Counted from the stretch's first letter, positions 11,206 through 28,144 are shown. The stretch: DNA of 64,000 nucleotides from Oligoflexia bacterium (GCA_031292385.1 JARLHE010000040.1:34471-98470), one strand, 5' to 3'. The notes: generated by a model not told the origin, from the letters alone. Program-made: numbers and translations.

Positions 11206-11214
11206 ACGAAGATT

Positions 11215-11640: not shown

Positions 11641-11869
11641 CAGGTGCACCTTGTTTTTTTGATTGGATCGAACTCTGAGCGAAGCGTCAAGGAATTCAAA
11701 TCGGCCGGCCTGACTTCTCGAACGGATTTGAGCAAAAAAGGCCCAAGGAGGCGTTTCGCGCGATGGACGCTTTGTGGATAAAGCATGTCCGTCCGGTGAG
11801 TTATCCCCAAGAACGGAGAACTTATCCCCAATGCGTTGCATTATCGTGAAAATGACGGGGTAATTTGTC

Positions 11870-12658
11870 TCATCCTTCGTAAGGAAGGAGCCCTCGAATT
11901 GTTTGCGCGCCATCAATCGGGAAGGTTTGCCCGGTGGTGTAAGACGCCGCATCCGAGCAAAGGTAGAGAACCGCTCCGACCATCTCTTCAGGCTCCGCTC
12001 CTCGGTGCAATGGCGCCGCCGCTTTGATTTTTGCGTTGAATTGCTTGTCCTCATCCCAGGCCTTGGTCATGGGGGTGCGGACCCATCCGGGCGCTAACGC
12101 GTTGACGCGAATTCCATGATTTGCATTTTCGATCGCGGCTGTTTTCGTGAGCCCGATGACTCCGTGTTTCGCGGCCACATAGGCCGCCATCCCGCCTTCC
12201 GGAAGTAGCCCAGCGACCGAGGCCGTATTCACAATCGCCCCTTTTCCTTTTTTGACCATATATTGAAGCTCATACTTCAGGCAGAGGAAGGTTCCCTTTA
12301 GGTCAATATGAAGGACACGATCAAATGCCGCTTCATCGAAGTCGGCAATAGGCTGGGGGGCGTGAAGAATGCCGGCGTTGTTAAATGCGCAATCGAGGCC
12401 TCCATAGACACGAACGGTTTCTTCAATCAAGGCTTTGACAGATTGAGAGTTGCCGACGTCGGTCTTCACAAAGTGCGCCTGGCCGTTCTCTTTTTTGATC
12501 ATTTCGACTGTTTCTTTGGATCCGGCTTCGTTCATATCGCCGATCACGACTTGAGCGCCCTGGCGCGCAAAACCCAGGGATACCGCTCGACCGATTCCAG
12601 AGCTTCCGCCGGTAACCAGAACGGTTTTGTTTGAGAAATCCAATAGATTTTCAGCCAT
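11870..12658 (-). CDS. SDR-family oxidoreductase
   Basis: TGGSSGIGRA cofactor-binding motif, NNAG, and the YxxxK active site (YVAAKHG). Confidence 0.85.
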   Translation of the reverse strand: MAENLLDFSNKTVLVTGGSSGIGRAVSLGFARQGAQVVIGDMNEAGSKETVEMIKKENGQAHFVKTDVGNSQSVKALIEETVRVYGGLDCAFNNAGILHAPQPIADFDEAAFDRVLHIDLKGTFLCLKYELQYMVKKGKGAIVNTASVAGLLPEGGMAAYVAAKHGVIGLTKTAAIENANHGIRVNALAPGWVRTPMTKAWDEDKQFNAKIKAAAPLHRGAEPEEMVGAVLYLCSDAASYTTGQTFPIDGAQTIRGLLPYEG

Positions 12659-12674
12659 GCGATTAATCCTTTAT

Positions 12675-14210
12675 TTAAATGTAAATTCCCGATTTACCGG
12701 GCGCGATAATGCCATTCGGATCCAGGGATCGCTTCAAGCGCTTATTTAAATTCCGTAATTCCTTGCTGTAGGTTTTCGCGGCCAGGTCCATGAACGCGAT
12801 ATTCGTGCGATAGCAGCCGTATCCAAGCTTCGCGTTCGCCTCGAGGGCTTCCTTGAAACAGGCATGAGCTCTTTGGGTCTCTTCAGGATTGGTTCTATCA
12901 AAGAGAAGATCAGCGACTTGCTCCAAGTGTCGCACTCCGAGCAAAAAGCCGATCGGGCAGTTAAAGCCATGCTTATTGAAAATTTCCTTCGTGGCGTTAT
13001 AGCATCGGACGACATCATAGGCCCGGGCGGGAAGGGCCGGCGCAAACCACGCGGAGCCGCCTCCTCCGATGAAGTTGTAGTTTCCAAACTCATGAAGCTC
13101 AGGGCGTCCGGTCATCATCCTTTGCCAGTGGCGCGCATCGGGGCTCGCGTTGAACGCTTCCCCGGTGAAGACGAATCCGCCCGTGGACTCGAAAGCCTCT
13201 CTACAAATTTTCAAATTGACGGCGACCTGTTCCTTGGTTCCATACAAGGTCGAGAAAAGGGCAAACTGCGGTATGCCGTGATCTTTATAATATTTAGCTA
13301 AAACGGCATCGGGAATCGCCCCTGGGCCATCGTAAATATCCGATCGCTTTTTCGTTGAAATAACGCCATAAAGCGCGGAACCAACGACCCCATTTTCCAT
13401 CACGGCGGAGAGTCGCATGCGACTGGCCATCTCAACTCCTTTGGCCATGGACTCGACATCATTCCAGCCCACGCCGAAGGATTCGTAGTGCGGAGGTTTT
13501 TTCATCAGCCAGAGGCCCATCTTCGTCACAACGCCTAAGTTCGACTGACTGAAAAGCCCGTCAACCCAGGGGCCGTAACCCCAACGATAAGATTGCCAGG
13601 TCTCTCCTTTGCCGATGCTTCCCATGCCGGTACGCACGACCTCGCCGTTTGCCAGGACAACTTCCAAGCCGCAGAAGTTAGAGAAATGTTCGCCGGCGCG
13701 ATTGTAGCCCACGCCCCGATCGAGAGTATTTCCCACCGGCCCAGCCAGCCCCCCGGACGAAGGAAAGCTCGCCCAGACATCCAGATTTCTTTCGTTGATA
13801 TAATCAACGAGTTCCTTATAGGTGACGCCGGGCTCCACAAGGGCGGTGCAAAGCACCGGGTCAATCTCAATGATCTTGTTCATGCCTCTCATGTCCAAAA
13901 CCATCTGTCCCGGTGTCGCCGGCGCCGCGGTGCCATATCCAAAATTCCGGCCGGTCGAAATCGGCCAAACGGGAATTCGATACTTGTTACAAATGCCAAG
14001 AACCTCTTGTACGTCCTTAACCGAACGAGCCAGTAAGGCCCCCGACGGCTGATGCTGGGAGTTTTCCGCCGGAATCATGATCTTCGAATACGGAGCGATT
14101 TTCTCCGGAGCCACAAGGACGTTTTCGTTTCCGAGCGCTTCTTTATATTCGCCGATGGCCTTATCAAAAGCTTCTTTGGAAACACCCTTGGGTAAAACGG
14201 AATTGGTCAT
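12675..14210 (-). CDS. FAD-linked oxidase, VAO/PCMH family (p-cresol methylhydroxylase flavoprotein-like)
   Basis: FAD_binding_4 N-terminal domain (PVWPISTGRNFGYG...SGGLAGP); about 510 aa from the MTNSVLPKG start. The upstream ORF extension was rejected. Confidence 0.8.
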   Translation of the reverse strand: MTNSVLPKGVSKEAFDKAIGEYKEALGNENVLVAPEKIAPYSKIMIPAENSQHQPSGALLARSVKDVQEVLGICNKYRIPVWPISTGRNFGYGTAAPATPGQMVLDMRGMNKIIEIDPVLCTALVEPGVTYKELVDYINERNLDVWASFPSSGGLAGPVGNTLDRGVGYNRAGEHFSNFCGLEVVLANGEVVRTGMGSIGKGETWQSYRWGYGPWVDGLFSQSNLGVVTKMGLWLMKKPPHYESFGVGWNDVESMAKGVEMASRMRLSAVMENGVVGSALYGVISTKKRSDIYDGPGAIPDAVLAKYYKDHGIPQFALFSTLYGTKEQVAVNLKICREAFESTGGFVFTGEAFNASPDARHWQRMMTGRPELHEFGNYNFIGGGGSAWFAPALPARAYDVVRCYNATKEIFNKHGFNCPIGFLLGVRHLEQVADLLFDRTNPEETQRAHACFKEALEANAKLGYGCYRTNIAFMDLAAKTYSKELRNLNKRLKRSLDPNGIIAPGKSGIYI

Positions 14211-14221
14211 AAAGTTCTCTC

Positions 14222-14929
14222 TTAAATTCTCGCGACAAACGAGACAAAACTGAAATGAGTTGTCGTCGACGTGGAATGAGCGTCTGGTCCTAGCAATGTG
14301 GAAGTCCTGACGGTACGTGGCCGCCAATTTCCAGAGCCGATCTGGCTCAGTTGATATCCGAGGCCCTGCTCCCATGACGTGAAGGACGGCAAGGCGCGCA
14401 TATTCTCTCCGGAGGTTGGCAAGACTTCATGAAATGAGGATTCACGAATCAAAGAGCTCTCGGCGCGCTGAGAAATCACTTGCGCGAATGCCGATCCAAT
14501 TCCCTGGCTGGCGGCGGTCGATTGAAAATAATGGCGGGTAAAATCCTTTCCACCCACATGTGAGCCCGAACAAAGTAAATCGGCTTTGCGTAAGCGCAGT
14601 CCTTCGTTGAAGTCAGTGAAAGCGCCATCATTCATGATGCCAATAATTACGGAACCCGGATGCTTGCCGACATGTGACTCGAGCTGATCCAGTCTATTGA
14701 ATCTCAATTCTCGTATTTTTGTCGCGGCGCTGGCGGCCAGTCGAATGCCGTTATCAAATTCAGCGTGAGCTTCTCCCAATCGTAAAATTTGTAGCGAAGA
14801 AATTGATCGAGGCAAAAGCATGGCCTCCGCCTGGTTTAAAAGGCCACTCAACGGATTCAGCGCGATGGTTGCGCCGAGCGCTGTGGATCGTGAAAGAAAT
14901 TCCCTGCGGGAAAGATGAAACGAGGTCAT
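14222..14929 (-). CDS. Tat-signal protein, PchX-like accessory subunit of flavocytochrome
   Basis: MTSFHLSRREFLSRSTALGATIA is a twin-arginine signal. It sits between the cytochrome c and flavoprotein genes, and its start overlaps the cytochrome c stop (ATGA). Confidence 0.5.
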   Translation of the reverse strand: MTSFHLSRREFLSRSTALGATIALNPLSGLLNQAEAMLLPRSISSLQILRLGEAHAEFDNGIRLAASAATKIRELRFNRLDQLESHVGKHPGSVIIGIMNDGAFTDFNEGLRLRKADLLCSGSHVGGKDFTRHYFQSTAASQGIGSAFAQVISQRAESSLIRESSFHEVLPTSGENMRALPSFTSWEQGLGYQLSQIGSGNWRPRTVRTSTLLGPDAHSTSTTTHFSFVSFVARI

Positions 14930-15324
14930 CACTTTCCTCCTGGTTGTGCTTTCTCAACCCAATCGGCTAAGCCATCGAGCTCCTGATCGCTGATTTCAGA
15001 AGGAAAAAATGGCGGCATGGTTTGAATGCCTCTGCGAGCAAACGCTTTTAGGGCTGCGGCCGGATAGTGCCTTCCCAGAATCGCGGGCCCCACACTTGGA
15101 TCGCCCGCATTGGGCTCGTGGCACTGGGAGCATAGGACTTGATAGATCTGCGCCGAATTCTTCCATTGACCGGCTCCATAACTTTTCCAATTTACTCTTT
15201 CGGAACCCTTTGTTGCACCGAGCTCCGGAGTAAAAGGAAAAATCGACATCTCGTTCTTGGATGAATCACCGCTGCTCGGTAGTGCGGCTAGAAAAAGTCC
15301 GATCGATAATAAATATATTCTCAC
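14929..15324 (-). CDS. class I c-type cytochrome (PchC-like)
   Basis: One CSQCH heme motif plus a signal peptide. A GTG at 15324 lies 7 nt after GGGAGG and is preferred over the track ATG at 15363. Confidence 0.65.
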   Translation of the reverse strand: MRIYLLSIGLFLAALPSSGDSSKNEMSIFPFTPELGATKGSERVNWKSYGAGQWKNSAQIYQVLCSQCHEPNAGDPSVGPAILGRHYPAAALKAFARRGIQTMPPFFPSEISDQELDGLADWVEKAQPGGK

Positions 15325-15471
15325 AGGTGCCCTCCCTGAAGCCCATTGTGGAGACGCCGTCATAGGTCGGGAAAGCTACTTGGGGCAACGTGATATGCGG
15401 AATATATTTTAGTGCTCATGTTGCTTTGCGTGAAATTGCGCGGGTCTGCTCCTTGCAGTCCGTTCGAGTTT

Positions 15472-16479
15472 ATGAAGGGAATCGTTCTTCGCTTGGCCGG
15501 AGGGGGGCTTGATCAACTAACGCTCGTCGATATGCCAGATCCTGGTACTCCGGCAAGAGGCGAGATTCGGGTGCGTATTCATGCAAGCTCCTTGAACTTT
15601 CATGACTACCTAGTCGTCAACGGTAAGCACACTCGCGAAGGCCACATTCCGATGTCGGATGGCGCGGGCGTTGTGGAAGCGGTCGGGGACGGCGTGACTG
15701 AATTTAAAGCGGGCGATCATGTGGTTTCTTGCTTTTTTCCCGCCTGGGAGGATGGGCCACCAAGAACTGGGGATTTTTCAACGGTTCCAGGTGACGGCGT
15801 TGCCGGCTATGCTCGCGAGGCGGTGGTTCGCCCCGCGAGCTGCTTCACACATGCTCCTCGCGGCTATGGTCATACCGAAGCGGCCACTTTGACCACGGCA
15901 GGTTTGACCGCGTGGCGCGCGCTTGTCGTGGATGGAGGCTTAAAACCCGGTGATGATGTTCTTGTTCTCGGCACGGGCGGCGTTTCCATCTTTGCGCTTC
16001 AAATCGCCAAACGCATGGGTGCCACGGTCATCGCCACGTCATCTTCCGAGAAAAAAATAGATCGTCTCAAAGCCTTGGGTGTGGATCATACTATCAACTA
16101 CCGAAAAGAAGAGAACTGGGGCGCCCGAGTGCGTGAGCTCACCTCGGGGAAGGGCGCGGATCACGTCATTGAAGTCGGCGGCGCGGGCACTCTGGGTCAG
16201 TCTATTTCGGCGGTTCGTGTGGGGGGACATATTGCTCTGATCGGTGTCCTTGCGGGAAATGTTGGTGAGATTCCCACCGGAGCGCTTCTTTCAAAACAAG
16301 CCAATCTAAAAAGCTTGCTTGTCGGCAGTCGTCAGCATCAAAAGGAATTCGTTCGGGCGCTCGAAGTCACCGGACTGCGTCCGGTGATCGACAAGGAATT
16401 CGCGTTGGCTGATATCGCCGACGCATTCAAGTACGAAAAGAGCGGCGCTCATTTCGGCAAGATCTGTCTTAAGTTCTAA
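15472..16479 (+). CDS. Zn-dependent/quinone oxidoreductase, MDR superfamily (NADPH:quinone reductase-like)
   Basis: MKGIVL start, then GDHVV, VLVLGTGGVSIFALQIAKRMG (Rossmann GxGxxG), and a C-terminal -FGKIxL motif. Confidence 0.8.
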   Translation: MKGIVLRLAGGGLDQLTLVDMPDPGTPARGEIRVRIHASSLNFHDYLVVNGKHTREGHIPMSDGAGVVEAVGDGVTEFKAGDHVVSCFFPAWEDGPPRTGDFSTVPGDGVAGYAREAVVRPASCFTHAPRGYGHTEAATLTTAGLTAWRALVVDGGLKPGDDVLVLGTGGVSIFALQIAKRMGATVIATSSSEKKIDRLKALGVDHTINYRKEENWGARVRELTSGKGADHVIEVGGAGTLGQSISAVRVGGHIALIGVLAGNVGEIPTGALLSKQANLKSLLVGSRQHQKEFVRALEVTGLRPVIDKEFALADIADAFKYEKSGAHFGKICLKF

Positions 16480-16942
16480 AGACACCAGCAGGCCGTCTGC
16501 TCGCAAAAAAGGCCCATTGTGCTCATCAGGCCCGTGCTTAGGGCTGGCAGGGTTCGGGGGAAATCGCCTGCCTGAGCGCTGAAGCAAAGAAGAATTCATC
16601 GCATTTTCTTGCGATTCATTACCTTTATACCTGGCACACTCCGTTTGGAACCTTTGGTTACAACAACGCGGCTCTTCGGATTAAACTCAAGAGGGGTGTA
16701 AGGTTCGCCTATCTGCGCGGAGCTATCCGTAACTGTCCGATCAACGTCAAGGATGACGAAAATACAGCTATTTCAACCCGAACGCGGAGCCCTCGGCATC
16801 GGGGCCGTAGGGTGAAAGCATGTACGGGCTTGCCATTACACGGGCCCCGATCCGATTGCTGGGGTTTGTCTGTGTGCCGAGGGGCGCAGTTCAAGCCATT
16901 TGAATACTGAACACAGTCGAGGTTTTGTGATAGAGTTGATCC

Positions 16943-17692
16943 ATGTCTATAGAGTCTGAACAAGATCTGATCGCACTGAAAAGAATCGGCCGCATCGTCG
17001 CGAACTGCCTTCAGACGATGGGTAAAGCTCTTGAGCCGGGTATGACGACTCGAGAGCTCGACGATATCGGTAGAAAATATTTGGAGTTTCACGGAGCAAG
17101 GTCGGCTCCGAAGCTCACTTATAATTTTCCTGGAACGACTTGTATCAGCGTCAACGAGGAGGCTGCCCACGGAATACCAGGTGATAGAGTCCTGGCGGCG
17201 TCCGACCTTGTTAACATCGACGTGTCGGCGGAGCTGGCTGGATACTTCGCTGACACAGGCGGCTCTTTTATCATTCCACCTGAGTCACGTGTTAAGCGGA
17301 ATCTTTGTATCGCAACAAAGCGCGCGCTGGAGCTGGCGATTAACGAGGCCCGAGCGGGTCAGCGGCTCAACGGAATAGGACGAGCGATCGAAACACACGC
17401 TCTTCGAAATCATTTGACCGTGATTGAAAATATTGGCAGCCACGGAGTCGGAAAAGCTCTTCACGAAGAGCCTGGTTTTATTCCAGGATATTATGACCCA
17501 AAAGACAGGCGAGTGCTAAAAGAGAATCAAGTCATCACGATCGAGCCTTTTCTTTCGACCGGTGCACGAGAAGTTTTTGATACGGGCGACGGCTGGACGC
17601 TTGCTACGAACAAGAGATATTTAACGGCCCAGTATGAGCATACGATGGTGATTACAAAAGGCCGACCGATAATAATGACTCTGCCAGCGTAG
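16943..17692 (+). CDS. map: methionine aminopeptidase type I
   Basis: MetAP-I metal ligands (D..D, H, E, E) and the conserved GIPGD, NIDVS, HGVG and ITIEPF blocks. Confidence 0.9.
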   Translation: MSIESEQDLIALKRIGRIVANCLQTMGKALEPGMTTRELDDIGRKYLEFHGARSAPKLTYNFPGTTCISVNEEAAHGIPGDRVLAASDLVNIDVSAELAGYFADTGGSFIIPPESRVKRNLCIATKRALELAINEARAGQRLNGIGRAIETHALRNHLTVIENIGSHGVGKALHEEPGFIPGYYDPKDRRVLKENQVITIEPFLSTGAREVFDTGDGWTLATNKRYLTAQYEHTMVITKGRPIIMTLPA

Positions 17693-17850
17693 AGTTTTGA
17701 GGTCGGCCATCCTTGGTCATTCCGTTTTCGTCCGAAGAGTCCAATACGCAAATTCCGGCGTGTGTAAATGAAATGGGCTAGCAGCTCCTTCGGGAGGTGC
17801 TAGCCCACTAGTCATCATTTTCGAAGCGATTTCACGGATCGCGACGTTGT

Positions 17851-20800
17851 TCAGTGCCGCGCGACCGACGAACACTCCTTTCCTTTGCAATACACGGTTA
17901 AAGTCGCGTCGGCCGGAGCGATATTGTTGCCTAGGTCGGTCTGCAAGGCGCCGACCGGCAACTCGTTGTGGAAGTGGCCCTTGCAATTCCCGATCACGTA
18001 CAACGTCACCGTACAGGAGCCGTTGGCCGGGATCGAGCCACCCTTCAAGGTCACACTTCCCGTTTTGGATATGACCTTTCCTCCGCAAGTGGTTTTGGCG
18101 TAACCGGCGTTTTCCAAGCCGTCAGGCAAATAGTCAGTAAGCGGAGCCGTCAGCTTGGCGATCGTGTTGTTCGGGTTGCTCAGGGTAATGGTCAAGACCG
18201 ATGCCTGTCCCTTTTTGATTTTGTCCGGACAGAACGACTTGCTGAGCGTAGGTGGAATGGTCACGGGAGTCGGAAGAACGGTCAACGTCGCGATGGCCGG
18301 CGCGGCGTTGTTGCCTGCGCTTGTCTGCAAGGCGCCGATGGCCAACGTGTCGATGTAATTGCCTCCGCTGGCAACGGTCACGGGCACCGTTATCGTGCAG
18401 GAGCCGTTGGCCGGGATCGCACCTCCCGTCAATGTCACCGTTGAAGCGCCGGTACTGACCACACCTCCGCAGGTATTGCTGGCGCTGCCGGAAACCACGA
18501 CACCGCTGGGTAACGTGTCCGTAAGCGGCGAGGTCAGGCTCGCAGCCGTTGCGTTGGTGTTGCTGAGGGTGATGGTGAGAGTCGAAGCACCGCCCGAAGG
18601 AATCGTCGCCGGGCTGAAGGCCTTGCCAAGCGTGACGGTAGAGGGAATGGAAACCGTCAACGTCGCGATGGCCGGAGCGGTATTGCTTCCGCTACTGGTC
18701 TGCAATGCACCGACGGCAAGCGAATCGATGTAGTTGCCGCCGTTCGCCGCGGTCACGGGCACCGTCACGGTACAGGATCCGTTAGCCGGGATCGATCCTC
18801 CGGTCAGAGTCACCGTCGACGAGCTTGTGGTGACCGTGCCGCCACAAGTGTTGCTCCCGCTACCTGAGACTACGAGTCCGCTAGGCAACGTATCGGTAAA
18901 CGGCGAGGTTAATGCCGCGGCTGTCGCGTTGGCGTTGCTCAGGGTAACGGTGAGAGTCGATGTACCGCCCGCCGCGATCGTTGCAGGGCTGAAAGCCTTG
19001 CCCAACGAGGGCGCGACCACCGGCGTGATCACCGTCAGGGTAGCGATGGCCGGGGCGGTATTATTGCCGTTGCTCGTCTGCAAGGAGCCAGCGGGCAGGG
19101 TGTCGATGTAGTTGCCGCCGTTCGCCGCGGTCACGGGTACCGTCACCGTGCAGGAGCTGTTAGCCGGGATCGCTCCTCCGGTCAGCGTCACCGTCGAAGA
19201 GCTTGTGGTGACCGTGCCGCCACAAGTGTTGCTCCCGCTACCTGAGACTACGAGTCCGCTAGGCAGCGTATCGGTAAACGGAGCGCTTAAGCTCGCGGCC
19301 GTCGCGTTGGTGTTGCTCAAGGTAATGGTGAGCGTCGAGCTTCCGCCCGCATTGATCGTGGCCGGGCTGAAGGCTTTGCCCAGCGCGGGCGCGACCTCTG
19401 GCGTATTGACGGTCAATGTCGCGATTGCTGGAAACGCATTGATTCCGTTGCTGGTTTGCAGGGAACCGGCGGCGATCGAGTCGATATAGTTGCCCCCATT
19501 AGCGGCAGTCACGGGTACCGTGACCGTGCAGGAGCCGTTGGCCGGGATCGATCCGCCCGTCAGGGTTACCGTAGAAGTCGTTGTAGTGACCGTGCCGCCA
19601 CAAGTGCTGCTCCCGCTGCCAGAGACGGCAACACCACTTGGCAGCGTGTCGGTGAACGGCGAGGTCAGGCTCGCGGCCGCCGAATCAGCGTTGCTCAGGG
19701 TAATGGTGAGGGTCGAGGTACCTCCCGCATCGATAATCGCTGGGCCAAATGCTTTGCCGAGAGTCGGCGCTATCACGGGAGCGACGACCGTTAAGGTCGC
19801 AACCGCTGGAGCGGCATTGGCGCCGTTACTGGTCTGCAATGCGCCGGCAGCCAATGAGTTGATGTAGTTGCCGCCGTTTGGCGCGGTCACAGGTACCGTG
19901 ACCGTGCACGAGCCGTTGGCCGGGATCGCTCCAGCCGATAGGGTCACTGTCGAGGAGGTCGTGGTCACCGTACCGCCGCAGGTGTCGCTGCCGCTGCCGG
20001 AGACGGTAACACCGCTCGGCAATGTGTCGGTGAGCGGCGAGGTGATGCTCGCGGCCGCCGAATCGGCGTTGCTCAGGGTAATGGTGAGGGTCGAGCTACC
20101 GCCCGCATTAATGGTGGCTGGAGCGAAGTCCTTGCCGAGCGTGGGCGCGGTGGGCGGTTGAGGAACGGTCAAGGTCGCAACTGCCGGAGCGGCGTTGCTT
20201 CCATTGCTGGTCTGCAAGGCACCGACGGCGAGCGAGTCGACGTAGCTGCCGCCGTTCGCGGCGGTCACGGGCACGGTGACCGTGCAGGAACCGCCGGCCG
20301 GGATCGAACCTCCCGTCAAAGTAATTGCTGAAGTGCTTGTCGTGATCGTACCGCCGCAGGTGGTGCTACCACTGCCGGAGATCACTACGCCGCTGGGCAA
20401 CGTATCGGTGAATGGGGAGGTTAGGCTCGCGGCCGTGGTGCCGGAGTTGCTCAACGTGATCGTGAGGGTCGATGGGTTCCCCTCGCTGACGGTGGCCGGA
20501 CTGAAGGCCTTGCCAAGAGTGATTTCAGGCAGGGCGCACACGGAGAGCGTGACGACATTGGAATCCATCGTCACCGCGCCGTTCTGAGCCAGAGTTCTGC
20601 CGGATACAGTGGCGTCGGTATTGAGCGTGATGCTCGTAAGCGCGAGAATATTTCCTATGAATGTCGTGCTTGTACCGATCGTCGCGGAGCTGCCGACTTG
20701 CCAAAAGACATTGCATTCTTGAGCACCATTAATGAGCAGCACGGACGAGCCACTCGCCGTCGTGAGTGTGCTCCCTATCTTGAAAATCCAGACCGCATTT

Positions 20801-21270
20801 GGATTGCCTTGGGCATCTAGAGTGACCGCTCCCGTCAGTTGAGCCGAGGACGAAAAGCAATAGACTCCCGGCACGAGTGTGAGTCCGCCGATATCCGTTG
20901 GAACGCCATAGGTGGTATCGCACGCCTGGCCCGCCAAATCGTTATACGCGGTAGTGGTATCGCTCTGAGCCTGAGCCGCTACCGCATCCGCCGCGTGTAT
21001 GGTCCCTCCGACCACGGTTCCCGGCGGAAAGCCCGTGACCGCCGTGCCCGGGCTGACTCCAAGATTTCCGGTCACAATGCTCGGCCCGGTATTGGTTACC
21101 GTCGAGGCTCCGAGTACGGCAAAGCTCTGCGCAGTCCCCAATGAAGGCGCGACCTGTGCCCACGCCGCATGAAATGAGGGGGCAAAAGGAAACGCGGCGA
21201 TCGCGCCGATAAACGCAAACTTCGCAAAAACGCTTTTAAAAATTCTAGTTCGAACGATGGGACTTTTCAT
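17851..21270 (-). CDS. large secreted surface protein: ice-binding-like DUF3494 beta-helix head + ~8 DUF11 repeats
   Basis: Signal peptide MKSPIVRTRIFKSVFAKFAFIGAIAAF. The N-terminal domain (AQSFAVLGASTVTNTGPSIVTGNLGVSPGTAVTGFPPG...AQSDTTTAYNDLA) matches the DUF3494 IBP-like consensus. It is followed by ~125-aa repeats with TDTLPSG..VSGSGS.TCGG...SCTVTVPVTA (DUF11-like). The track's ORF start at 21360 is an unsupported extension. Confidence 0.8.
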   Translation of the reverse strand: MKSPIVRTRIFKSVFAKFAFIGAIAAFPFAPSFHAAWAQVAPSLGTAQSFAVLGASTVTNTGPSIVTGNLGVSPGTAVTGFPPGTVVGGTIHAADAVAAQAQSDTTTAYNDLAGQACDTTYGVPTDIGGLTLVPGVYCFSSSAQLTGAVTLDAQGNPNAVWIFKIGSTLTTASGSSVLLINGAQECNVFWQVGSSATIGTSTTFIGNILALTSITLNTDATVSGRTLAQNGAVTMDSNVVTLSVCALPEITLGKAFSPATVSEGNPSTLTITLSNSGTTAASLTSPFTDTLPSGVVISGSGSTTCGGTITTSTSAITLTGGSIPAGGSCTVTVPVTAANGGSYVDSLAVGALQTSNGSNAAPAVATLTVPQPPTAPTLGKDFAPATINAGGSSTLTITLSNADSAAASITSPLTDTLPSGVTVSGSGSDTCGGTVTTTSSTVTLSAGAIPANGSCTVTVPVTAPNGGNYINSLAAGALQTSNGANAAPAVATLTVVAPVIAPTLGKAFGPAIIDAGGTSTLTITLSNADSAAASLTSPFTDTLPSGVAVSGSGSSTCGGTVTTTTSTVTLTGGSIPANGSCTVTVPVTAANGGNYIDSIAAGSLQTSNGINAFPAIATLTVNTPEVAPALGKAFSPATINAGGSSTLTITLSNTNATAASLSAPFTDTLPSGLVVSGSGSNTCGGTVTTSSSTVTLTGGAIPANSSCTVTVPVTAANGGNYIDTLPAGSLQTSNGNNTAPAIATLTVITPVVAPSLGKAFSPATIAAGGTSTLTVTLSNANATAAALTSPFTDTLPSGLVVSGSGSNTCGGTVTTSSSTVTLTGGSIPANGSCTVTVPVTAANGGNYIDSLAVGALQTSSGSNTAPAIATLTVSIPSTVTLGKAFSPATIPSGGASTLTITLSNTNATAASLTSPLTDTLPSGVVVSGSASNTCGGVVSTGASTVTLTGGAIPANGSCTITVPVTVASGGNYIDTLAIGALQTSAGNNAAPAIATLTVLPTPVTIPPTLSKSFCPDKIKKGQASVLTITLSNPNNTIAKLTAPLTDYLPDGLENAGYAKTTCGGKVISKTGSVTLKGGSIPANGSCTVTLYVIGNCKGHFHNELPVGALQTDLGNNIAPADATLTVYCKGKECSSVARH
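18359..20245. repeat. five near-identical 378-bp tandem repeats inside the surface-protein gene, flanked by more diverged copies out to about 17854 and 20460
   Basis: Antisense ORFs recur at 18359, 18734, 19112, 19490 and 19868 with a 378-nt period and near-identical translations. Confidence 0.7.
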
Positions 21271-21451
21271 ATCAGGCTCCGAATGCTCATTAATAAATGA
21301 AGATGTTTCTTCCGTCAGATCTGCGATGTGACCGCGGGGCCTGTGCAGAATTGGTGCCATCGATGCATCGGGAAAAACGACTGGGCTGGCGCTACATCAC
21401 CGAGTTTCGTGCGTAGCTCGCTTCATGTTGCAATTCACGTTGCAGGAGGCA

Positions 21452-22183
21452 TTAGTTGGGTGAGTAGGATGCCGACCAAATCAAGTCGTTACCGAGTTCG
21501 CATTCGGCGTTCGGCTGGGTCAGCTGAAAGGGGCCCCAGAAAACAGGGCACGAGCATTCCGCATAGCCATTTTCGATTCGGCAGGGTGCCGTCATACATC
21601 CCGCGTAGGGCGCTTTGGGGCACTGGGTAATCCCGGATGCGCCCGAATGCGCAGCCATTGCCTCGCTCTGGGAGGTCCTCACTTGTGGGCTGAAATCGGA
21701 AATGATTTCGGCGCCGGGAATCAGTTTTCCTTGCTGGATGTAGCGGCAAACGGGGGCCTTATCTACCTGCGTTGCGCAACCACTTCCGTCCATTCCACAG
21801 ACGGAGACCGTTTCCAGATATACATCGTAGTTCAAAATGGAGTTGATGGTGACAAACTGAAGTCCCGACTCAATGGTGCACTTGCAGTTTGCAAAGCGGC
21901 CTGTTTTGTCTAGTGTGCATGGCAGAGGCTCGGGCCCTGAGTTGAAGCAAAGCGCGTAGCTGCCAGTACACGGCAAGAAGTTCGATAGCGCTTCATTCGT
22001 ATCCCGATAAGCGGGACCGTAATTCGTGGTCCAGTGCTTTGAGTAGTCCCAGAACTCCTGGGAGTCGGGGACGAAATGGACCGGCTTGCATTGGCCTTGA
22101 GCGAACGCCCCTGTTGCGGCGACGCAAAGCAGGGCGACTAAAAAAGCGAAATTCTGAATCTGTTTCACCGAAATTATCTCCAT
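21452..22183 (-). CDS. secreted cysteine-rich hypothetical protein
   Basis: Signal peptide FAFLVALLCVAATGAFAQGQ, then about 15 Cys in the mature part. Lower GC than its surroundings. Sits 181 nt upstream of the surface-protein gene on the same strand. Confidence 0.5.
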   Translation of the reverse strand: MEIISVKQIQNFAFLVALLCVAATGAFAQGQCKPVHFVPDSQEFWDYSKHWTTNYGPAYRDTNEALSNFLPCTGSYALCFNSGPEPLPCTLDKTGRFANCKCTIESGLQFVTINSILNYDVYLETVSVCGMDGSGCATQVDKAPVCRYIQQGKLIPGAEIISDFSPQVRTSQSEAMAAHSGASGITQCPKAPYAGCMTAPCRIENGYAECSCPVFWGPFQLTQPNAECELGNDLIWSASYSPN

Positions 22184-22337
22184 TTATGCTTGGGCGAGCA
22201 TGTAAACGCCATCTCTGTCGCCTTGCATAGATTCGACATTGCTCCTCATCGCAGGCGGGGTGCAGCCAAGTGCAGATGTTGTGCCACCAAAAATGCGATC
22301 ACATCGCGATCATGACTCGTGATCGGAGGCCTTAAGA

Positions 22338-22512
22338 ATGAAGAATGGCGCCCGCATTCTGTGGCGGCAACCGAAGCTGAGTCTCGCGGAGCTGGCAAAA
22401 CTACGCTGGGAATAAGGTTTAGGAGTCCGAGAAATCGCACGGCAGCTGGGTCTCTCCCATTCGTCCGTCGTTGAGCGGTTAAATCGCTGGAAAGAGCAAA
22501 ATAATGGATAGC
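22338..22512 (+). pseudogene. HTH gene fragment (IS630-type transposase or sigma70-region4-like N-terminus) with in-frame TAA
   Basis: MKNGARILWRQPKLSLAELAKLRWE-TAA-GLGVREIARQLGLSHSSVVERLNRWKEQNNG reads in one frame, interrupted by TAA at 22413 and ending after 58 codons. Confidence 0.4.
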
Positions 22513-22758
22513 GCTATCGACAAGTTCATCACGTTGGCGACGGCGCGGGTGGTTTCGTTGCGCCCCGGGTGCCATTCCTTTTTATCTAATTATATTATAA
22601 TTATACAATGACGTGACGTATCGCGTTAATCTCGCTTGCGTAAAGTCTGAGAATACTATGGCTTCCAGCTCGGTTAATTAGTCCTCGGTAAATCAAGGGG
22701 AGGTATCCTCTCTTACGAAACCCGGGCAGTATCTACGTCCCGACATAGGAGAAAATTT

Positions 22759-23159
22759 ATGAAAAAAGTGGTTTGATTTTTGTTTCAACAGCTCTCACGC
22801 TTTTGAGTTTAAACGCTTTTTCAAAAAGCAACCTCAACGGAGGTACTAGCGCTTCCGATCTCCAACAGCTTCTTTCCGAGTTACAATTGCCTTCAGGCTG
22901 CACACTTGGTTTGACGTCGAATGGCTCAGGCTTTGATGTGACTCTGAGCACGCCAAACGGAACGGGACACGCTACCGTCAGCAACAATGACCAGTTCTCA
23001 AATGCCCGAACGACGACGTACGGTGCCGATGGTATTACTGTTTCGGGTCAAGCCAGCTCAGGTGATAACATAACGTATGTTGAGACCGTCGACGATTCCG
23101 ATAACGACGTCTTCGTGAGCCTTCAAGTGGGTTCCGCAAATTGTGCCGCACAGCCATAA
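22759..23159 (+). pseudogene. small secreted protein gene disrupted (or phase-switched) at an A6 tract
   Basis: AGGAG, then ATG at 22759, then AAAAAA, then a stop after 5 codons. One extra A would give MKKSGLIFVSTALTLLSLNAFS... in frame with the 128-aa ORF at 22773-23159. Confidence 0.45.
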
Positions 23160-23340
23160 CCTCGTTGCTGAATAAAACTCCACTCCAGGTCAGCTAGCGA
23201 AGGCGCCGGGGGCGTGAACGGTTTATCTTACTAGGTCCGTCGCCACTTGTCCTTGTAGCTCGGCGGTGAATTTGTTTTTGGTGGTGGAAGGTTCAATAGA
23301 AATCATTTGGTCGAAGCTAAAAACCAATTTCAGCAAACAA

Positions 23341-23380
23341 AAAGGGCCGAGGGAGAGCATCCCTTGGCCTTTTCTTTTTT
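23341..23380. terminator. bidirectional rho-independent terminator hairpin
   Basis: aaagggccgaggg/cccttggcctttt stem with T-runs on both strands. Confidence 0.45.
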
Positions 23381-23455
23381 CGGGGTTGACCAGTCGTTCC
23401 GCCGCCATTTGGCGGGCTCGGATTTGACGGTCAAAAGTGCGTCTGATTTTAGAAT

Positions 23456-23475
23456 TGGCGCGCCCGGAGAGATTC
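23456..23475. repeat. exact 20-nt direct copy of the tRNA-Arg 3' end (att-like scar)
   Basis: tggcgcgcccggagagattc is identical to 23807-23826. Confidence 0.75.
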
Positions 23476-23582
23476 ACTTTTCGCGTTCGTGCGAAAAGTA
23501 GCTCCTTGATGAGGTCGGCCCATCCTGGGTCTCCTTCTTTTTATTGTTTTGCTTCGCAAAACGGGTCGTCGAACTCCACTCC

Positions 23583-23601
23583 GCGCGTCCGGAGAGATTC
23601 G
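23583..23601. repeat. degenerate direct copy of the tRNA-Arg 3' end (1 mismatch in 19 nt)
   Basis: gcgcgTccggagagattcg versus gcgcgCccggagagattcg. Confidence 0.55.
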
Positions 23602-23760
23602 GCCTTCGCCTCTTCGCTCCTGCTCAGAGGCTCGGCATGGACAATTTGCTAAGTCGCGCTTCCTGCGCGCCTTGCCTCGCCAGACTCTCCGCTGGAGAGT
23701 CCGTCGCGGCCGCAAATTCTCGTTCGAATCTCTTCGGGAACAACAATCTATGAAAATGAA

Positions 23761-23800
23761 AAAGGGCAGGAACGTTCGTTCCCGCCCTTTTTCATTTTGT
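23761..23800. terminator. terminator hairpin immediately 3' of tRNA-Arg (bidirectional)
   Basis: aaagggcaggaacg/cgttcccgcccttt stem followed by tttttcatttt; the reverse strand also ends in a T-run. Confidence 0.55.
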
Positions 23801-23806
23801 AGATTA

Positions 23807-23883
23807 TGGCGCGCCCGGAGAGATTCGAACTCCCGACCAACTGGTTCGAAGCCAGCTACTCTATCCAACTGAGCTACGGGCGC
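23807..23883 (-). tRNA. tRNA-Arg (anticodon TCG)
   Basis: 77-nt cloverleaf on the minus strand, GCGCCCG-TA-GCTC-AGTTGGATAGA-GTAG-CTGG CTTCGAA CCAG...CGGGCGC-G-CCA. The anticodon loop CTTCGAA gives UCG. CCA is encoded. Confidence 0.85.
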
Positions 23884-23930: not shown

Positions 23931-24896
23931 TCAATGCGCGTGAGCGCAATCATAGCACCGCTCGGAGCTGAAGCGCTCCGGGTGCTCGACCTGGATGGTT
24001 GTATGAATGATTCCGTGATCTTCTTCCAGAAGGTGATTGGCGGCTGAGATCACCTGTTCGGGCTCTTGAGAGGTAATAATGTGGACGCTTAAGGCAAGTC
24101 TGCCGCTGGCCACGGCCCAGATGTGCAGGTCGTGCACTTCGGTCACGCCGGGGAGGGTCGCGAGGTCGTGAAGGACGCGCTCCGGGTCGATGCCTTCGGG
24201 GGTGCGCTCCATGAGCACGTTCACCGCTTCGCGCACGAGGCCCCAGGAACTCCAAAGCATGAGCGCGGCGGCGACCATCGTGATGATCGGATCGACCATG
24301 TGCCAGCCGGTGAACCAGATCACGGCACCGGCGACGACGGCGCTCAAGCTTCCGAGCGCGTCCGAGAGAACGTGAAGGTAGGCGGCTTTCACATTCATAT
24401 TGCCGTGGCTTGAGCCGTGGAGCATTTTCATGCTCAATAAATTCGCCGCAAGACCGATGGTGGCGATGACGAGCAAAATTCCGCCTTGAACCGCTGGAGG
24501 GTTTTGCAGGCGGACGATCGCTTCGTAAACCAGGAGGCCAGAAATCAGCCAGATTCCGAGCCCGCTTGCGAGCGCACCCAGGATTTCGGCGCGGTAATAG
24601 CCAAAGCTCATGCGCGCGGTCTTGGGCCGCTCGGATATCCAGATCGCGAAAAGACTGAAGGCCATCGCCGCGACATCGGCGCCCATGTGCAGGCCATCCG
24701 TCATGAGCGCGAGCGAGTTGGCGATGTAGCCGCCAAAAAGCTCGAGCAGCATGAAGATCGCCGTGACGACGATCGCTTTTCTGAGCGCTCCGGGGGCCGC
24801 GCCCGCGCCATGGGAGTGCGAATGACCGTGCGCGTGCGCATGGGAACGGTCATGAGCATGGGAATGCTCGTGCTGGTGCTCGTGATCCGAACTCAT
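23931..24896 (-). CDS. cation diffusion facilitator (CDF) family metal efflux transporter
   Basis: His-rich N-terminus (HEHQHEHSHAHDRSHAHAHGHSHSHG), six TM helices, and a C-terminal cytoplasmic domain with a His-rich tail. Confidence 0.85.
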   Translation of the reverse strand: MSSDHEHQHEHSHAHDRSHAHAHGHSHSHGAGAAPGALRKAIVVTAIFMLLELFGGYIANSLALMTDGLHMGADVAAMAFSLFAIWISERPKTARMSFGYYRAEILGALASGLGIWLISGLLVYEAIVRLQNPPAVQGGILLVIATIGLAANLLSMKMLHGSSHGNMNVKAAYLHVLSDALGSLSAVVAGAVIWFTGWHMVDPIITMVAAALMLWSSWGLVREAVNVLMERTPEGIDPERVLHDLATLPGVTEVHDLHIWAVASGRLALSVHIITSQEPEQVISAANHLLEEDHGIIHTTIQVEHPERFSSERCYDCAHAH

Positions 24897-25324
24897 GTCA
24901 AAATCCGGTTCAAGACCTTAACCGATTCATAGCAAGCCTGGGCGGCTTCGCGCCCTTTGTTGCCGGCGCCGTTTTTGGCGCGGATTTCGGCCTGCTCGTC
25001 GGTGTAGGTCGTGAGGATGCCGAAGGTGATCGGGGTTTCCGTCGCCAGGCTTGCCTGCATGAGGCCCATCGAGGCACCTAAGCTGATGAATTCAAAATGC
25101 GCGGTATCTCCTTTGATCACGCAGCCCAGGCAGATGACGCCTGCGTATTTTTTCGTGCGCGCGAGCGATTGGGCGATTAGCGGGATTTCGAATGCTCCGG
25201 GAGCATCGAAAATATCGTCCAGGCTTGGTTCCACGCCCTTTTCTTTCAAGTATTCGATTGAGCCCGCGAGCAGGCCATCGGTGATTTCGGTATTGTAACG
25301 GCTAACGACGATCGCGAATTTCAT
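24893..25324 (-). CDS. ribH: 6,7-dimethyl-8-ribityllumazine synthase
   Basis: MKFAIVVSRYNTEITDGLLAGS...GAFEIP...GVICLGCVIKGDTAHFEFI matches lumazine synthase. Confidence 0.9.
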   Translation of the reverse strand: MKFAIVVSRYNTEITDGLLAGSIEYLKEKGVEPSLDDIFDAPGAFEIPLIAQSLARTKKYAGVICLGCVIKGDTAHFEFISLGASMGLMQASLATETPITFGILTTYTDEQAEIRAKNGAGNKGREAAQACYESVKVLNRILT

Positions 25325-26556
25325 TTGTTCTTTTCCAGGCTCTTTTCGAGGGTGAGGGCATGCCCAAGTTTATCGCGCTTGGTGGTGAGGTAAGTCAAAT
25401 TCCAAGGATTGGACGGCGCTTCGATCGGAACGCGCTCAACCACCTCGAGCCCGTAGCCGTCGAGCCCGACGATCTTTTTCGGGTTATTGGTGAGGAGCCG
25501 GATTTTCGTAACGCCCAGATGTTTCAAAATCTGCGCGCCCAGTCCGTAGTGGCGAAGGTCGGCCTGAAAGCCCAGGTGGCGATTGGCTTCCACCGTATCC
25601 ATTCCCTGGTCTTGCAAGGCGTAGGCACGGATCTTATTGCCCAGGCCGATACCGCGCCCTTCGTGTCGGCGCATATAGACCAAAACTCCGTTGCCGCTGG
25701 CCGCGATCTGCGCGAGCGCGCTTTGAAGCTGCGCGCCGCAATCGCATCGGAGCGAGCCTAAGGCATCGCCGGTCAGGCATTCGGAGTGCACGCGCACGAG
25801 CGCCGGATTGGTGAGCGGGCCTTTCACTAACGCGAGGTGCTCCGTGCCGTCGATCTTGCTTCGGAAGGCGTGGAGCTCGAATTCGCCGTTTTCGGAAAAC
25901 GCGGAAGGAAAGCGGGTTTTCGCGAGGTCTTCGATCAAGGATTCGGTTTGCATGCGGGCCGCGATCACATCGCGGATCGAAACGATGGGAAGGCCGTGCT
26001 CGGCGGCGAAGATTTTCAGATCCGGAAGGCGCGCCATCGTGCCGTCGTCTTTCATGATTTCGCAGATCACCGCCGCGGGCTTGAGTCCCCCCATGCGCAT
26101 CAGATCGATCGAGCCTTCGGTGTGCCCGGCGCGCACCAGAACGCCGCCATCGACCGCTTTGAGCGGAAAAATATGCCCTGGGCTGGAGATGTCTTCGGCC
26201 GTCGTCGACGGATCGGCCGCGACTTGAATCGTGCGCGCGCGATCGTGAGCCGAGATGCCGGTCGTGATCCCGGTTTTCGCTTCGATCGAAACGGTGAAGG
26301 CGGTTTGGCGGGGCGAGCCGTTTCGGGCGGCCATTTGCGGCAATTTCAGCGCATCGACGCGAGAGGCTTCAAGTGGCAGGCAGATCAGCCCGCGTCCGAA
26401 GCGGGCCATGAAATTCACGGCTTCGGCGGTCGCGAACTCGGCCGCGAGTACCAGATCGCCTTCATTTTCCCGGTCCTCGTCGTCGACCAGGATGACCATT
26501 TTGCCTTTTTTCAGGGCTTCTAGCGCGACTTTAACTGATTCTGGTAAGGCTGGCAT
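25321..26556 (-). CDS. ribBA: bifunctional 3,4-dihydroxy-2-butanone-4-phosphate synthase / GTP cyclohydrolase II
   Basis: N-terminal DHBP synthase (VDDEDRENEGDLV) and C-terminal GCH-II with a CxxGDxxxSxRCDC-type motif (CLTGDALGSLRCDC). Confidence 0.9.
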   Translation of the reverse strand: MPALPESVKVALEALKKGKMVILVDDEDRENEGDLVLAAEFATAEAVNFMARFGRGLICLPLEASRVDALKLPQMAARNGSPRQTAFTVSIEAKTGITTGISAHDRARTIQVAADPSTTAEDISSPGHIFPLKAVDGGVLVRAGHTEGSIDLMRMGGLKPAAVICEIMKDDGTMARLPDLKIFAAEHGLPIVSIRDVIAARMQTESLIEDLAKTRFPSAFSENGEFELHAFRSKIDGTEHLALVKGPLTNPALVRVHSECLTGDALGSLRCDCGAQLQSALAQIAASGNGVLVYMRRHEGRGIGLGNKIRAYALQDQGMDTVEANRHLGFQADLRHYGLGAQILKHLGVTKIRLLTNNPKKIVGLDGYGLEVVERVPIEAPSNPWNLTYLTTKRDKLGHALTLEKSLEKNK

Positions 26557-27131
26557 AATTTCTCCAAATACTTGGCCATGATGTCGACTTCGATATTGAC
26601 CGGGTCGTTGACCTTGAGGCTTGAAAAGGCCGTGTGGGTCCAGGTGTGCGGGATCAGCATGACGGAGAGGCGATTTGCCTCGATTCGATTGACGGTCAGG
26701 CTCACTCCGTCGATCGCGATGGAACCCTTTTCGACCACGTAGCGCGCGAGATTTTCCGGCAATTCGAAATCAAGCTCGTAACATTCCTCGCGCCGTTCGA
26801 TTCGGATCGCGCGCGCGACGCCATCGACATGGCCTTGCACGATATGGCCGGAGAGGCGCGTGTTCGGCAGAAGCGCGCGCTCCAGGTTGACTTGCGAATT
26901 TTCGTGCAGGGCGCCCAGGCGCGTGCGATCGATCGTTTCCGGAGAGACGTAGAAAACGGTCGCGCCTTTTTTGAGCTCGGCGACGGTGAGGCAAACTCCG
27001 CTGATCGCCACGCTTTCTCCCAGCTCCAGATCGGTGAAGCCGGTTTCGATCTCCATGCTCAATCCTTGATGGGTCGGAGTATGAGCTCTTGCCCTGATTC
27101 GTCCTACGGATTGGATGATGCCGGTGAACAT
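26520..27131 (-). CDS. ribE: riboflavin synthase alpha subunit
   Basis: MFTGIIQSVGRI start and the lumazine-binding repeat pattern. Confidence 0.85.
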   Translation of the reverse strand: MFTGIIQSVGRIRARAHTPTHQGLSMEIETGFTDLELGESVAISGVCLTVAELKKGATVFYVSPETIDRTRLGALHENSQVNLERALLPNTRLSGHIVQGHVDGVARAIRIERREECYELDFELPENLARYVVEKGSIAIDGVSLTVNRIEANRLSVMLIPHTWTHTAFSSLKVNDPVNIEVDIMAKYLEKLCQPYQNQLKSR

Positions 27132-28144
27132 AACTCCCTGAACTTCCTGGTGACCTGATCTTCTTTGCTCTTGGCGGAGCGAACGTCGATCCGAATGTGC
27201 TCATCCCATAGCCCTTGGCTTAAAACAAAGCCTGAAAGGGTGGGACCCGCTTCGACCAAGACTTCTAACACGCCTCGCCTACCCAGTACTTGCAAAAACT
27301 CCGGGAAACTCATTTCTGGAGGACAGGCGAGGATTTCAAAGCCCTGAGCGCTGCGGGCGGCATACCAGTCTGGTGAAACTCGATTGTTTCTATCAAGTAC
27401 CGTGAGGATTCGCTTTTTTTGAGGATTCGGCGGGTGGTCGGCCACATGCCGGACGGTGAACTCGGGGGAATCGGCTAGCACGGTCCCGCTCCCGGTGACG
27501 ATGGCATCGGCCCGTTTTCTCAGCTCATGGGCGAGTTTCAAAGAGGCCGGGCTTGAAAAAGTTTTCCGACCCGCGGGCGGGATCATACTGCCTTCTTCGT
27601 TCCAAACTGTTTTGACGGTCACCCAAGGGATGCCGGTCTTGGAATGCTTAGCGAACGGCCCGATGAGCTCCCGGCAGCCGACTAGAAGGGGATCGTTGGG
27701 AAGAACCCGTTTCTCCAAGGGTTCGATCCAGACTCCCGCGGCCTTCAAGCGAGCGGCGCCTCCGCCTTCGACTTTGGGATTGGGATCCGCCACGCCGTAA
27801 ATTACCTGAACTTTTGGCGAATGTCGGAACACCTTCAAAATCGCCTCCGTGCAAGGGGGCGTGCGGCCATGGTGATTGCAGGGCTCGAGGGTGATGAAAA
27901 GCGTGTGGATGCGCTTCAGGTTTTCTTCCGGAGTCGAGAGTGCCGCGATGACTTTGGCTTCGGCGTGTGGCGTGCCTGCGCGCTCATGCGCGGCAAGCGA
28001 TAGGATTTCGCCGCTCTCATTCAAGGCCACGGCTCCGACTGGCGGGTTCGGCGCGGTGGCGCCCCGGAACCGGTTTGCTTCGGCGAGCGCGGCCTCAAAA
28101 GCTTTTCGTTCAACTATAGGGGCAACTATTGAAATTCCCGTCAC
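27104..28144 (-). CDS. ribD: bifunctional riboflavin biosynthesis deaminase/reductase RibD (GTG start)
   Basis: TAPNPPVGAV and HAE..A deaminase motifs; the C-terminal half is the RibD reductase. Confidence 0.8.
   Translation of the reverse strand: MTGISIVAPIVERKAFEAALAEANRFRGATAPNPPVGAVALNESGEILSLAAHERAGTPHAEAKVIAALSTPEENLKRIHTLFITLEPCNHHGRTPPCTEAILKVFRHSPKVQVIYGVADPNPKVEGGGAARLKAAGVWIEPLEKRVLPNDPLLVGCRELIGPFAKHSKTGIPWVTVKTVWNEEGSMIPPAGRKTFSSPASLKLAHELRKRADAIVTGSGTVLADSPEFTVRHVADHPPNPQKKRILTVLDRNNRVSPDWYAARSAQGFEILACPPEMSFPEFLQVLGRRGVLEVLVEAGPTLSGFVLSQGLWDEHIRIDVRSAKSKEDQVTRKFRELCSPASSNP

Follow-up and report, generated by a model that had tools for sequence, protein, structure and literature searches.

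The 64,000-nucleotide stretch of DNA analyzed here, the window, originates from an Oligoflexia bacterium (GCA_031292385.1 JARLHE010000040.1:34471-98470) and encodes a 1139-aa protein at 17851-21270, in which an ice-binding-like head is followed by a tandem repeat array. An initial annotation of the sequence had placed this open reading frame (ORF) correctly, leaving unstated that it lies on the minus strand, and had described the product as a surface protein with an expanding array of DUF11 repeats. The locus raises the question of what such a protein is built to do and whether its array is indeed in expansion. We consider it fairly probable that the gene encodes a Sec-exported, covalently reinforced fibrillar protein with an ice-binding-type head on a stalk of DUF7933 domains and that ice is the likeliest target of this head. 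The integrity of the gene, the identities and folds of its domains, the conservation of triad and Cys residues, the age of the array and the wide spread of the architecture are secure, whereas formation of the isopeptide and disulfide bonds, ice binding and a position at the cell surface are inferred.

Fold and candidate ice-binding face of the head

The head lies at 20518..21156 on the minus strand. The Pfam model PF11999 (Ice_binding/DUF3494) matched residues 52-241 over its full length (model positions 1-208 of 208) with 236.9 bits against a cutoff of 28.7 (E=2.4e-70), and the motifs on which the DUF3494 assignment had been based, including GNLGVSPG and TGFPPG, were found at residues 50, 68 and 79. 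A sequence search of the Protein Data Bank (PDB) matched the head to 25 solved ice-binding proteins (IBPs), the best being EfcIBP (6EIO, 9e-57), followed by IBPv (5UYT) and AnpIBP (7BWX). Structure prediction of the head, which had been named as a test of the assignment, yielded the anticipated beta-helix. The AlphaFold2 (AF2) model of residues 39-377 reached a predicted local distance difference test score (pLDDT) of 93.8 and contained a helix at model residues 58-75, followed by short repeating strands. The top 31 PDB matches of the head model in Foldseek were all DUF3494 IBPs, with best root mean square deviations (rmsd) of 0.9-1.3 A, among them EfcIBP 6EIO (E=1.6e-19, rmsd 1.3 A, 52% identity) and AnpIBP 7BWY (template modeling [TM] score 0.97, rmsd 0.9 A). 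EfcIBP and AnpIBP belong to a DUF3494 subgroup without capping region (PMC7783341). Pfam, PDB search, AF2, Foldseek and alignment place the head, predicted as a beta-solenoid with one long alpha-helix, in this cap-less subgroup (PMC7277481).

The rows of the ice-binding B-face published for AnpIBP (PMC7277481) were transferred to the head through the alignment, and not from coordinates. The resulting putative rows (TAVT / STVTNT / SSAQLT / STLTTA / SSATIG / TSITLN / GAVTMD) were almost identical to those of EfcIBP and carried Thr or Ser at 19 of the 27 outward positions, versus 11 of 27 in AnpIBP. Replacement of S153 or T156 of AnpIBP by Tyr leaves 17% of its activity (PMC7277481), and the head keeps the equivalents of both residues. 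Moreover, the B-face positions were invariant or nearly so in 45 homologs, and this face is the most conserved surface of the head. Four Cys (precursor residues 117, 138, 186 and 245), conserved in at least 90% of the same 45 homologs, are absent from EfcIBP and AnpIBP, which suggests two extra disulfides specific to the subfamily. Judged from sequence and model, the DUF3494 fold of the head is genuine and its candidate ice-binding face intact, and this face is probably functional in ice binding.

The name "ice-binding" could nevertheless be that of the family and nothing else, if the protein were a fibrillar adhesin or matrix protein of a general kind, with a DUF3494 head that recognizes some other periodic surface (for example, that of a mineral, a polysaccharide or another cell's envelope). 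We regard this as possible, if rather doubtful. It would fit the score of the head against the NCBIfam equivalog IBP_CFB, which at 107.1 bits stays below the cutoff of 400 (the model describes a different subfamily of the CFB group), the occurrence of DUF3494 proteins in tropical and hot-spring organisms, for which various repeating substrates have been proposed as ligands (PMC7783341), and the typical role of isopeptide-domain (IPD) repeat proteins as stalks of fibrillar adhesins (PMC12617251). However, the closest characterized relatives, EfcIBP with 52% identity, AnpIBP and Nostoc nIBP, all bind ice, ice-structuring activity having been measured for nIBP, a member of the same cap-less subgroup (PMC7783341), and the residues of the ice-binding face are conserved, including the two supported by mutagenesis (PMC7277481, PMC7783341).

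Predicted chemistry and age of the DUF7933 stalk

Cutting the protein at the L-G-K-x-F-x-P motif gave seven units behind the head, where about eight had been announced. R1 to R6 are 125-128 aa each, and R7 is 131 aa including a 13-aa C-terminal tail. All seven stretches matched DUF7933 (PF25564; 586.7 bits against a cutoff of 26.5, E=2.3e-179), the best match covering model positions 1-123 of 123. DUF11 (PF01345), the label first given to the repeats, matched the same stretches far more weakly (119.9 bits, E=9e-35), and the NCBIfam model TIGR04226, an isopeptide-forming fimbrial domain, scored 74.9 bits against a cutoff of 30. A PDB sequence search with one unit returned only chance-level matches (E > 0.03). 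The AF2 model of R6-R7 (pLDDT 95.5) was all-beta, and in Foldseek the best non-IBP match of R1 was the CLIPPER/DUF11 crystal structure 9IFR, with CNA, BcpA and the C-domains of SspB/SpaP/BspA also matching. By these fold matches the units are predicted to be Ig-like beta-sandwiches of the CnaA-like type.

DUF7933 dates from a survey of isopeptide bonds within protein chains published in 2025, where it is described as a CnaA-like E-set domain in which disulfides are frequent, and its predicted triad is Lys973, Asp1008 and Asn1068 in the reference protein, i.e., a spacing of K, K+35 and K+95 (PMC12617251). K3 and D38 were present in all seven units at the published +35 spacing, and the third position corresponds to residue 94 in the penultimate strand. 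Conservation was computed over 633 units from 121 proteins and reached 98.3% for K3, 99.7% for D38, 99.1% for C54 and 96.4% for C78. On the minus strand, Pfam and the unit alignment delimit R1 (20140..20517; K3/D38/D94, with C54/C78), R2 (19762..20139; the canonical K3/D38/N94) and R3 (19384..19761; K3/D38/D94). The unit alignment delimits R4 (19006..19383) and R5 (18631..19005), both with K3/D38/D94, and, together with AF2, R6 (18247..18630; K3/D38/D94) and R7 (17854..18246; K3/D38/N94). Charged residues make up 3.2% of R1-R6, which have a uniform Thr/Ser/Ala/Gly surface, and the triad residues are the sole charged residues of R4-R6. R7 is a divergent, basic end unit (pI 8.9, 16% charged residues, 6 Cys), and its tail YCKGKECSSVARH had a low pLDDT. 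In six homologs (P0001, P0010, P0015, P0016, P0026 and P0031), the last two to four units carry Arg in place of C78 (motif NGSRT.TV), so that C54 would be unpaired there or the unit would be devoid of its disulfide.

The gene would give rise to a nearly uncharged fibrillar protein of approximately 105 kDa that is rich in disulfides and exported by the Sec pathway. With the signal peptide cleaved off, its N terminus would consist of the DUF3494 beta-solenoid, whose flat B-face retains Thr/Ser rows ordered as in relatives proven to bind ice. A rod of seven CnaA-like Ig domains would follow this head, the last one being the distinct basic end unit. Each unit is expected to be locked by the disulfide C54-C78 and by a self-catalyzed isopeptide bond between Lys3 in the first strand and residue 94 in the penultimate strand, with Asp38 as the catalyst. 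The solenoid face would bind a regularly spaced, ice-like surface, the likeliest target being ice itself in soil or water subject to freeze-thaw, and the covalently reinforced stalk would serve as a spacer or tether that resists proteases and force.

One unusual feature of the gene is the residue at position 94, which is Asp (GAC or GAT) in R1, R3, R4, R5 and R6 and the canonical Asn only in R2 and R7. Across the 633 units, this position is Asn in 97.2% and Asp in 2.5% (16 units). The remaining eleven Asp94 units belong to P0012, a protein from another Oligoflexia metagenome-assembled genome (MAG), and to P0029, P0042, P0116 and P0118, and no protein had more of them than the one studied here (five of seven). 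CnaA-like folds typically form Lys-Asn bonds with an Asp catalyst, and Lys-Asp cross-links are assigned to CnaB-like folds with a Glu catalyst (PMC12617251); because of this, the five Asp94 units would either form an atypical Lys-Asp bond or be free of a cross-link. Tentatively, we propose that R1 and R3-R6 form Lys-Asp isopeptide bonds catalyzed by Asp38 within a CnaA-like fold, or else that a clade centered on Oligoflexia lost the cross-link in most units, which would result in a stalk mixing locked and extensible domains. If this is true, then in either case an ice-binding head that is probably functional and a stalk reinforced by covalent bonds are joined in a very widespread soil and freshwater family. 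The presence of Asp and Asn units in one protein would offer a natural side-by-side comparison of Lys-Asn and Lys-Asp chemistry in a CnaA-like fold, and Lys-Asp chemistry could be of interest for protein-ligation engineering of the SpyTag type.

The history of the array differs from the one initially proposed. The 378-bp period was recovered by Tandem Repeats Finder (TRF; period 378, 5.9 copies, score 2037), with only 77% matches. The five central copies, announced as near-identical, are not: in-register nucleotide identity was 71-83% among R1-R6 and about 60% to R7, and protein identity was 72-83% and about 50%, respectively. By the Nei-Gojobori method, dS was 0.8-1.2 for nearly all pairs of units, and dN/dS was 0.12-0.26 among R1-R6. 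The exception was the pair R4/R5 (83% nucleotide identity, dS 0.47), which shares an identical 67-nt tract (19199-19265 in R4 and 18821-18887 in R5), the longest exact match in the array; all other exact matches between units were 30 nt or shorter. This tract reflects either a younger duplication or a patch of gene conversion. A comparison of units detected no positional orthology with the closest homologs and no within-genome homogenization beyond R4/R5. Identity among the middle units was 81-87%, versus 78-84% between them and foreign units, and R7 was 64-66% identical to foreign terminal or penultimate units versus 57% to its own neighbors. On these sequence comparisons, R7 is an old, distinct end-unit type, and the array is old, diverged and under purifying selection, with synonymous sites near saturation. 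Thus, the low identities, the high dS, the shortness of exact matches and the relation of R7 to foreign end units leave a recent expansion, and the copy-number variation by slippage deduced from it, unsupported. In this respect the finding mainly corrects the record, since the array is no hot spot of copy-number change.

Integrity of the gene and its antisense shadow

An ORF scan of the window showed 17851..21270 (minus strand) to be a complete, uninterrupted coding sequence (CDS) of 1139 codons followed by a TGA stop. A Shine-Dalgarno motif, GGAG, is located at 21277..21280 on the minus strand, with a spacer of 6 nt before the ATG at 21270. Since homologs also start with MKS..VR.R at this same position, we assigned the start to ATG 21270. 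The upstream ATG 21360 (1169 aa) was rejected, as no ribosome-binding site (RBS) precedes it, the residues it would add are without signal-peptide features, and the N termini of homologs coincide with the MKS position. Residues 1-38 (21157..21270, minus strand) form a predicted type I Sec signal peptide with cleavage at AWA|QVAPSLG, based on the sequence and on homolog junctions; the junction A-x-A|Q-x-AP-x-LGTA is common to most homologs. No lipobox Cys was found in this signal peptide. The mature product has a mass of approximately 105 kDa, a pI of 4.5, 5.2% charged residues and 22 Cys, whose conserved positions were counted in favor of export. The gene is intact in its reading frame, RBS and signal peptide.

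A recent foreign import of the gene was considered on the basis of composition and rejected. Its GC3 is normal, and its G+C excess sits in codon position 2, which is set by amino acid composition, so that the excess is not a sign of recent import. A scan for promoters and terminators was uninformative, with one promoter-like site, inside the CDS, against 1.6 expected.

In the annotation deposited at NCBI for this MAG, the 3.4-kb gene appears to be without a protein. Indeed, the flanking proteins at 16943-17692 and 21452-22183 have consecutive accessions, MDR3607889.1 (MetAP) and MDR3607890.1 (P4M08_10990), and an exact-sequence look-up of the product with either candidate start returned no record. 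The locus was probably flagged as a pseudogene or missed.

This gap, and the fact that short-read contigs break inside the array, are what could be said for the array being an assembly artefact or the gene a pseudogene, or for the real genes being the phased ORFs on the plus strand. We consider all of this very improbable. Short-read contigs in Logan (runs SRR23300978 and SRR23300977) were 100% identical to window positions 19236-23834 and 10943-18754, so that two independent assemblies confirm 86% of the gene (17851-18754 and 19236-21270) up to the R4/R5 junction. All repeated 31-mers of the gene fall within 18725-19235, where the independent contigs stop. Thus, 18755..19235, which lies outside both contigs and is covered only by the MAG assembly, is the one place where the number of units could be mis-assembled, and the artefact that would have undone the initial annotation is largely excluded. 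Moreover, the frame is intact with its RBS and signal peptide, family-invariant residues are kept in every unit, and dN/dS is 0.12-0.26 in the sense frame.

As for the plus strand, phased ORFs do exist opposite the repeats, as had been noticed, but their number and length differ from the five of 125 aa reported. The ORF scan showed six of them within 18359..20587: four of 124-125 aa (18359-18733, 18734-19111, 19112-19489 and 19490-19867), one of 97 aa (19868-20161) and one of 103 aa (20276-20587). None had a family match. Opposite R1-R6, this frame contains one stop per unit, always a TAG or TAA opposite the conserved Tyr92 codon, with an additional stop opposite codon 120 in R1 and a TTG directly after the stop in R2-R6. 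In 38 or more of the 77 related loci (among L002-L062), IBP genes homologous to this one were likewise overlapped by Arg-rich antisense ORFs of 90-420 aa. The plus-strand ORFs are shadow ORFs of a G+C-rich gene encoding a Thr/Ala/Ser/Gly-rich protein, and not genes. The warning of a gene-caller trap was justified, and this trap is a property of the whole family, given its presence in those loci. Together with the missing protein record, the long antisense ORFs of homologs are a useful caution for annotation.

Distribution, anchoring and relation to known systems

The combination of a PF11999 head with a DUF7933 array gave at least 2,368 matches at E<1e-10 in many phyla. Homologs carry one head and 2-11 units (mode 5) and are recorded as "ice-binding family protein," "DUF3494 domain-containing" or "DUF7933 domain-containing." Oligoflexia, Acidobacteriaceae, Nitrospirota, Terriglobia and Crenothrix all have relatives with 64-77% identity. 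In an archaeal MAG of Candidatus Methanoperedens (JAUSDC010000020.1, locus L010, 8001-9044), the head and first unit are 55% identical to the window protein. The sequence of this copy suggests a cross-domain transfer of the architecture, and the spread across phyla points to horizontal transfer, which has already been documented for DUF3494 genes (PMC7783341). The gene is an ordinary member of a large family that Pfam already models and NCBI already names, and the repeats it carries are old and stable.

The sources of homologs, soil, peat, freshwater and lichen-associated bacteria of many phyla plus an archaeon, would suit an adhesin directed at something other than ice. Against this, many of these habitats plausibly freeze seasonally, as inferred from isolate or sample names in record titles (e.g., SPRUCE). 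For the habitat of the window's own source, a literature search on the identifiers of the sample or its runs gave no match. The family is abundant in nonpolar soil, peat and freshwater bacteria, and the head, by alignment, keeps the ice-binding face of proven ice binders; the activity of one such head would bear on whether "ice-binding" fits thousands of annotations.

The protein has a signal peptide, a terminal binding domain and tandem stalk repeats, as do fibrillar adhesins. No anchor or sorting signal was found by Pfam or NCBIfam, and there is neither a lipobox nor a C-terminal transmembrane segment; the chain terminates 13 aa beyond R7, in YCKGKECSSVARH. A fibrillar-adhesin-like architecture is plausible and has published precedent (PMC12617251, PMC9957290), but for the designations as a surface protein and as an adhesin no recognizable anchor or sorting signal was found besides the Sec signal peptide. 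Among homologs, approximately 7 of 120 have an N-terminal lipobox and 8 of 120 a C-terminal IPTL-type tail; the rest have a signal peptide only.

Several points weigh against a reinforced, ice-directed fibrillar protein. The host is presumably diderm, and no anchor or sorting signal was found that would take the protein across the outer membrane or keep it attached. There is no single head-on-stalk geometry in the family, since a lipobox puts the head by the membrane and an IPTL tail puts it at the tip. The five Asp94 units may form no cross-link at all. Finally, ice need not be the ligand of the head, given the tropical and hot-spring DUF3494 proteins mentioned above (PMC7783341).

The scarcity of anchors, together with the very low charge of the stalk and its uniform surface, could also speak for a structural component of the envelope, an S-layer or a sheath, whose units would cover the surface like tiles, comparable to archaeal S-layer proteins that contain DUF11, and whose head would serve assembly and not ligand binding. 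However, a unit number varying from 2 to 11 is more easily reconciled with a spacer than with a lattice, no conserved gene for a partner or for assembly lies nearby, the gene is single copy in the window, and the B-face, as the most conserved surface, fits ligand binding. We consider such an envelope component improbable and retain the fibrillar protein with an ice-binding-type head as our preferred reading.

The neighborhood of the gene is not conserved. None of nine flanking window proteins had a homolog in the 77 related loci, and all-against-all clustering of flanking ORFs recovered only shadow ORFs, generic signaling proteins and Nostoc-specific synteny, with no operon partner. Elsewhere in the window, neither the head nor the units have a paralog. 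On the same strand, 181 nt upstream of the gene, a 243-aa Cys-rich ORF with a signal-peptide-like N terminus (21452-22183, minus strand) is annotated as hypothetical at NCBI. It had no Pfam match and was rejected as a conserved companion, as no homolog lies next to related genes in the 77 loci. Further upstream, at about 23931-27556 on the minus strand, a riboflavin cluster (RibD C-terminal domain, lumazine-binding/riboflavin synthase, RibBA and DMRL synthase) is followed by a cation-diffusion-facilitator transporter on the same strand, an ordinary housekeeping context. Separately, four homologs of 1437-1681 aa (P0017, P0021, P0038 and P0039) contain 7-8 tandem Ice_binding domains, no DUF7933 and a shared C-terminal motif, ...L.CVPS.KT.P, so that the same head is multiplied there in quite another manner.

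The nearest known relatives are other PF11999 proteins with PF25564 arrays, in Corallococcus carmarthensis, Crenothrix sp. and the Oligoflexia MAG CAVWVI01 (P0012). Like the window protein, they have a signal peptide, one DUF3494 head, tandem DUF7933 units and a divergent basic end unit, with 55-74% overall identity; the head and R1 are 77% identical to those of the Oligoflexia MAG, and P0012 also shares the C-terminal CKG.EC tail and Asp94 units. The window protein has seven units and is without the lipobox or IPTL-CTERM tail present in approximately 12% of homologs.

EfcIBP (6EIO), AnpIBP (7BWX/7BWY) and Nostoc nIBP share their fold with the head (rmsd 0.9-1.3 A to the AF2 model, 40-52% identity), in which the B-face Thr/Ser rows are kept (PMC7277481, PMC7783341). 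They are single-domain secreted proteins of polar organisms with measured activity, nIBP having in addition a PEP-CTERM anchor, whereas the window protein carries a 900-aa C-terminal stalk after its head and four extra conserved Cys and comes from a MAG.

With respect to the stalk, the best structural match of R1 outside IBPs was CLIPPER (DUF11, PF01345; 9IFR), a domain of a Gram-negative fibrillar adhesin (E=4e-4, TM score 0.58). CLIPPER and DUF7933 are both CnaA-like Ig domains of the same clan, with a triad of Lys, catalytic Asp and Asn, often a disulfide, and a place in the stalks of long secreted proteins (PMC12617251). However, identity to the window units is 22%, the units belong to the sister family DUF7933, their disulfide is C54-C78 and not the CTTC motif, and five of them have Asp in place of the bond-forming Asn.

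In the "ice adhesins" SfIBP_1 of Shewanella frigidimarina (6BG8) and MpIBP of Marinomonas primoryensis, an ice-binding domain is likewise combined with tandem Ig-like repeats tethering it to the cell (PMC9957290, citing Vance 2018 and Guo 2017). The DUF3494 domain of SfIBP_1 matched the head in sequence (E=7.9e-31) and in Foldseek (E=2.2e-14). The ice-binding domain of MpIBP is not known to be a DUF3494 domain. The stalk repeats of both ice adhesins are of the BIg type, whereas the stalk of the window protein consists of DUF7933 isopeptide domains and no anchor was identified. In concept, the window protein is analogous to these Ig-repeat ice adhesins (PMC9957290).

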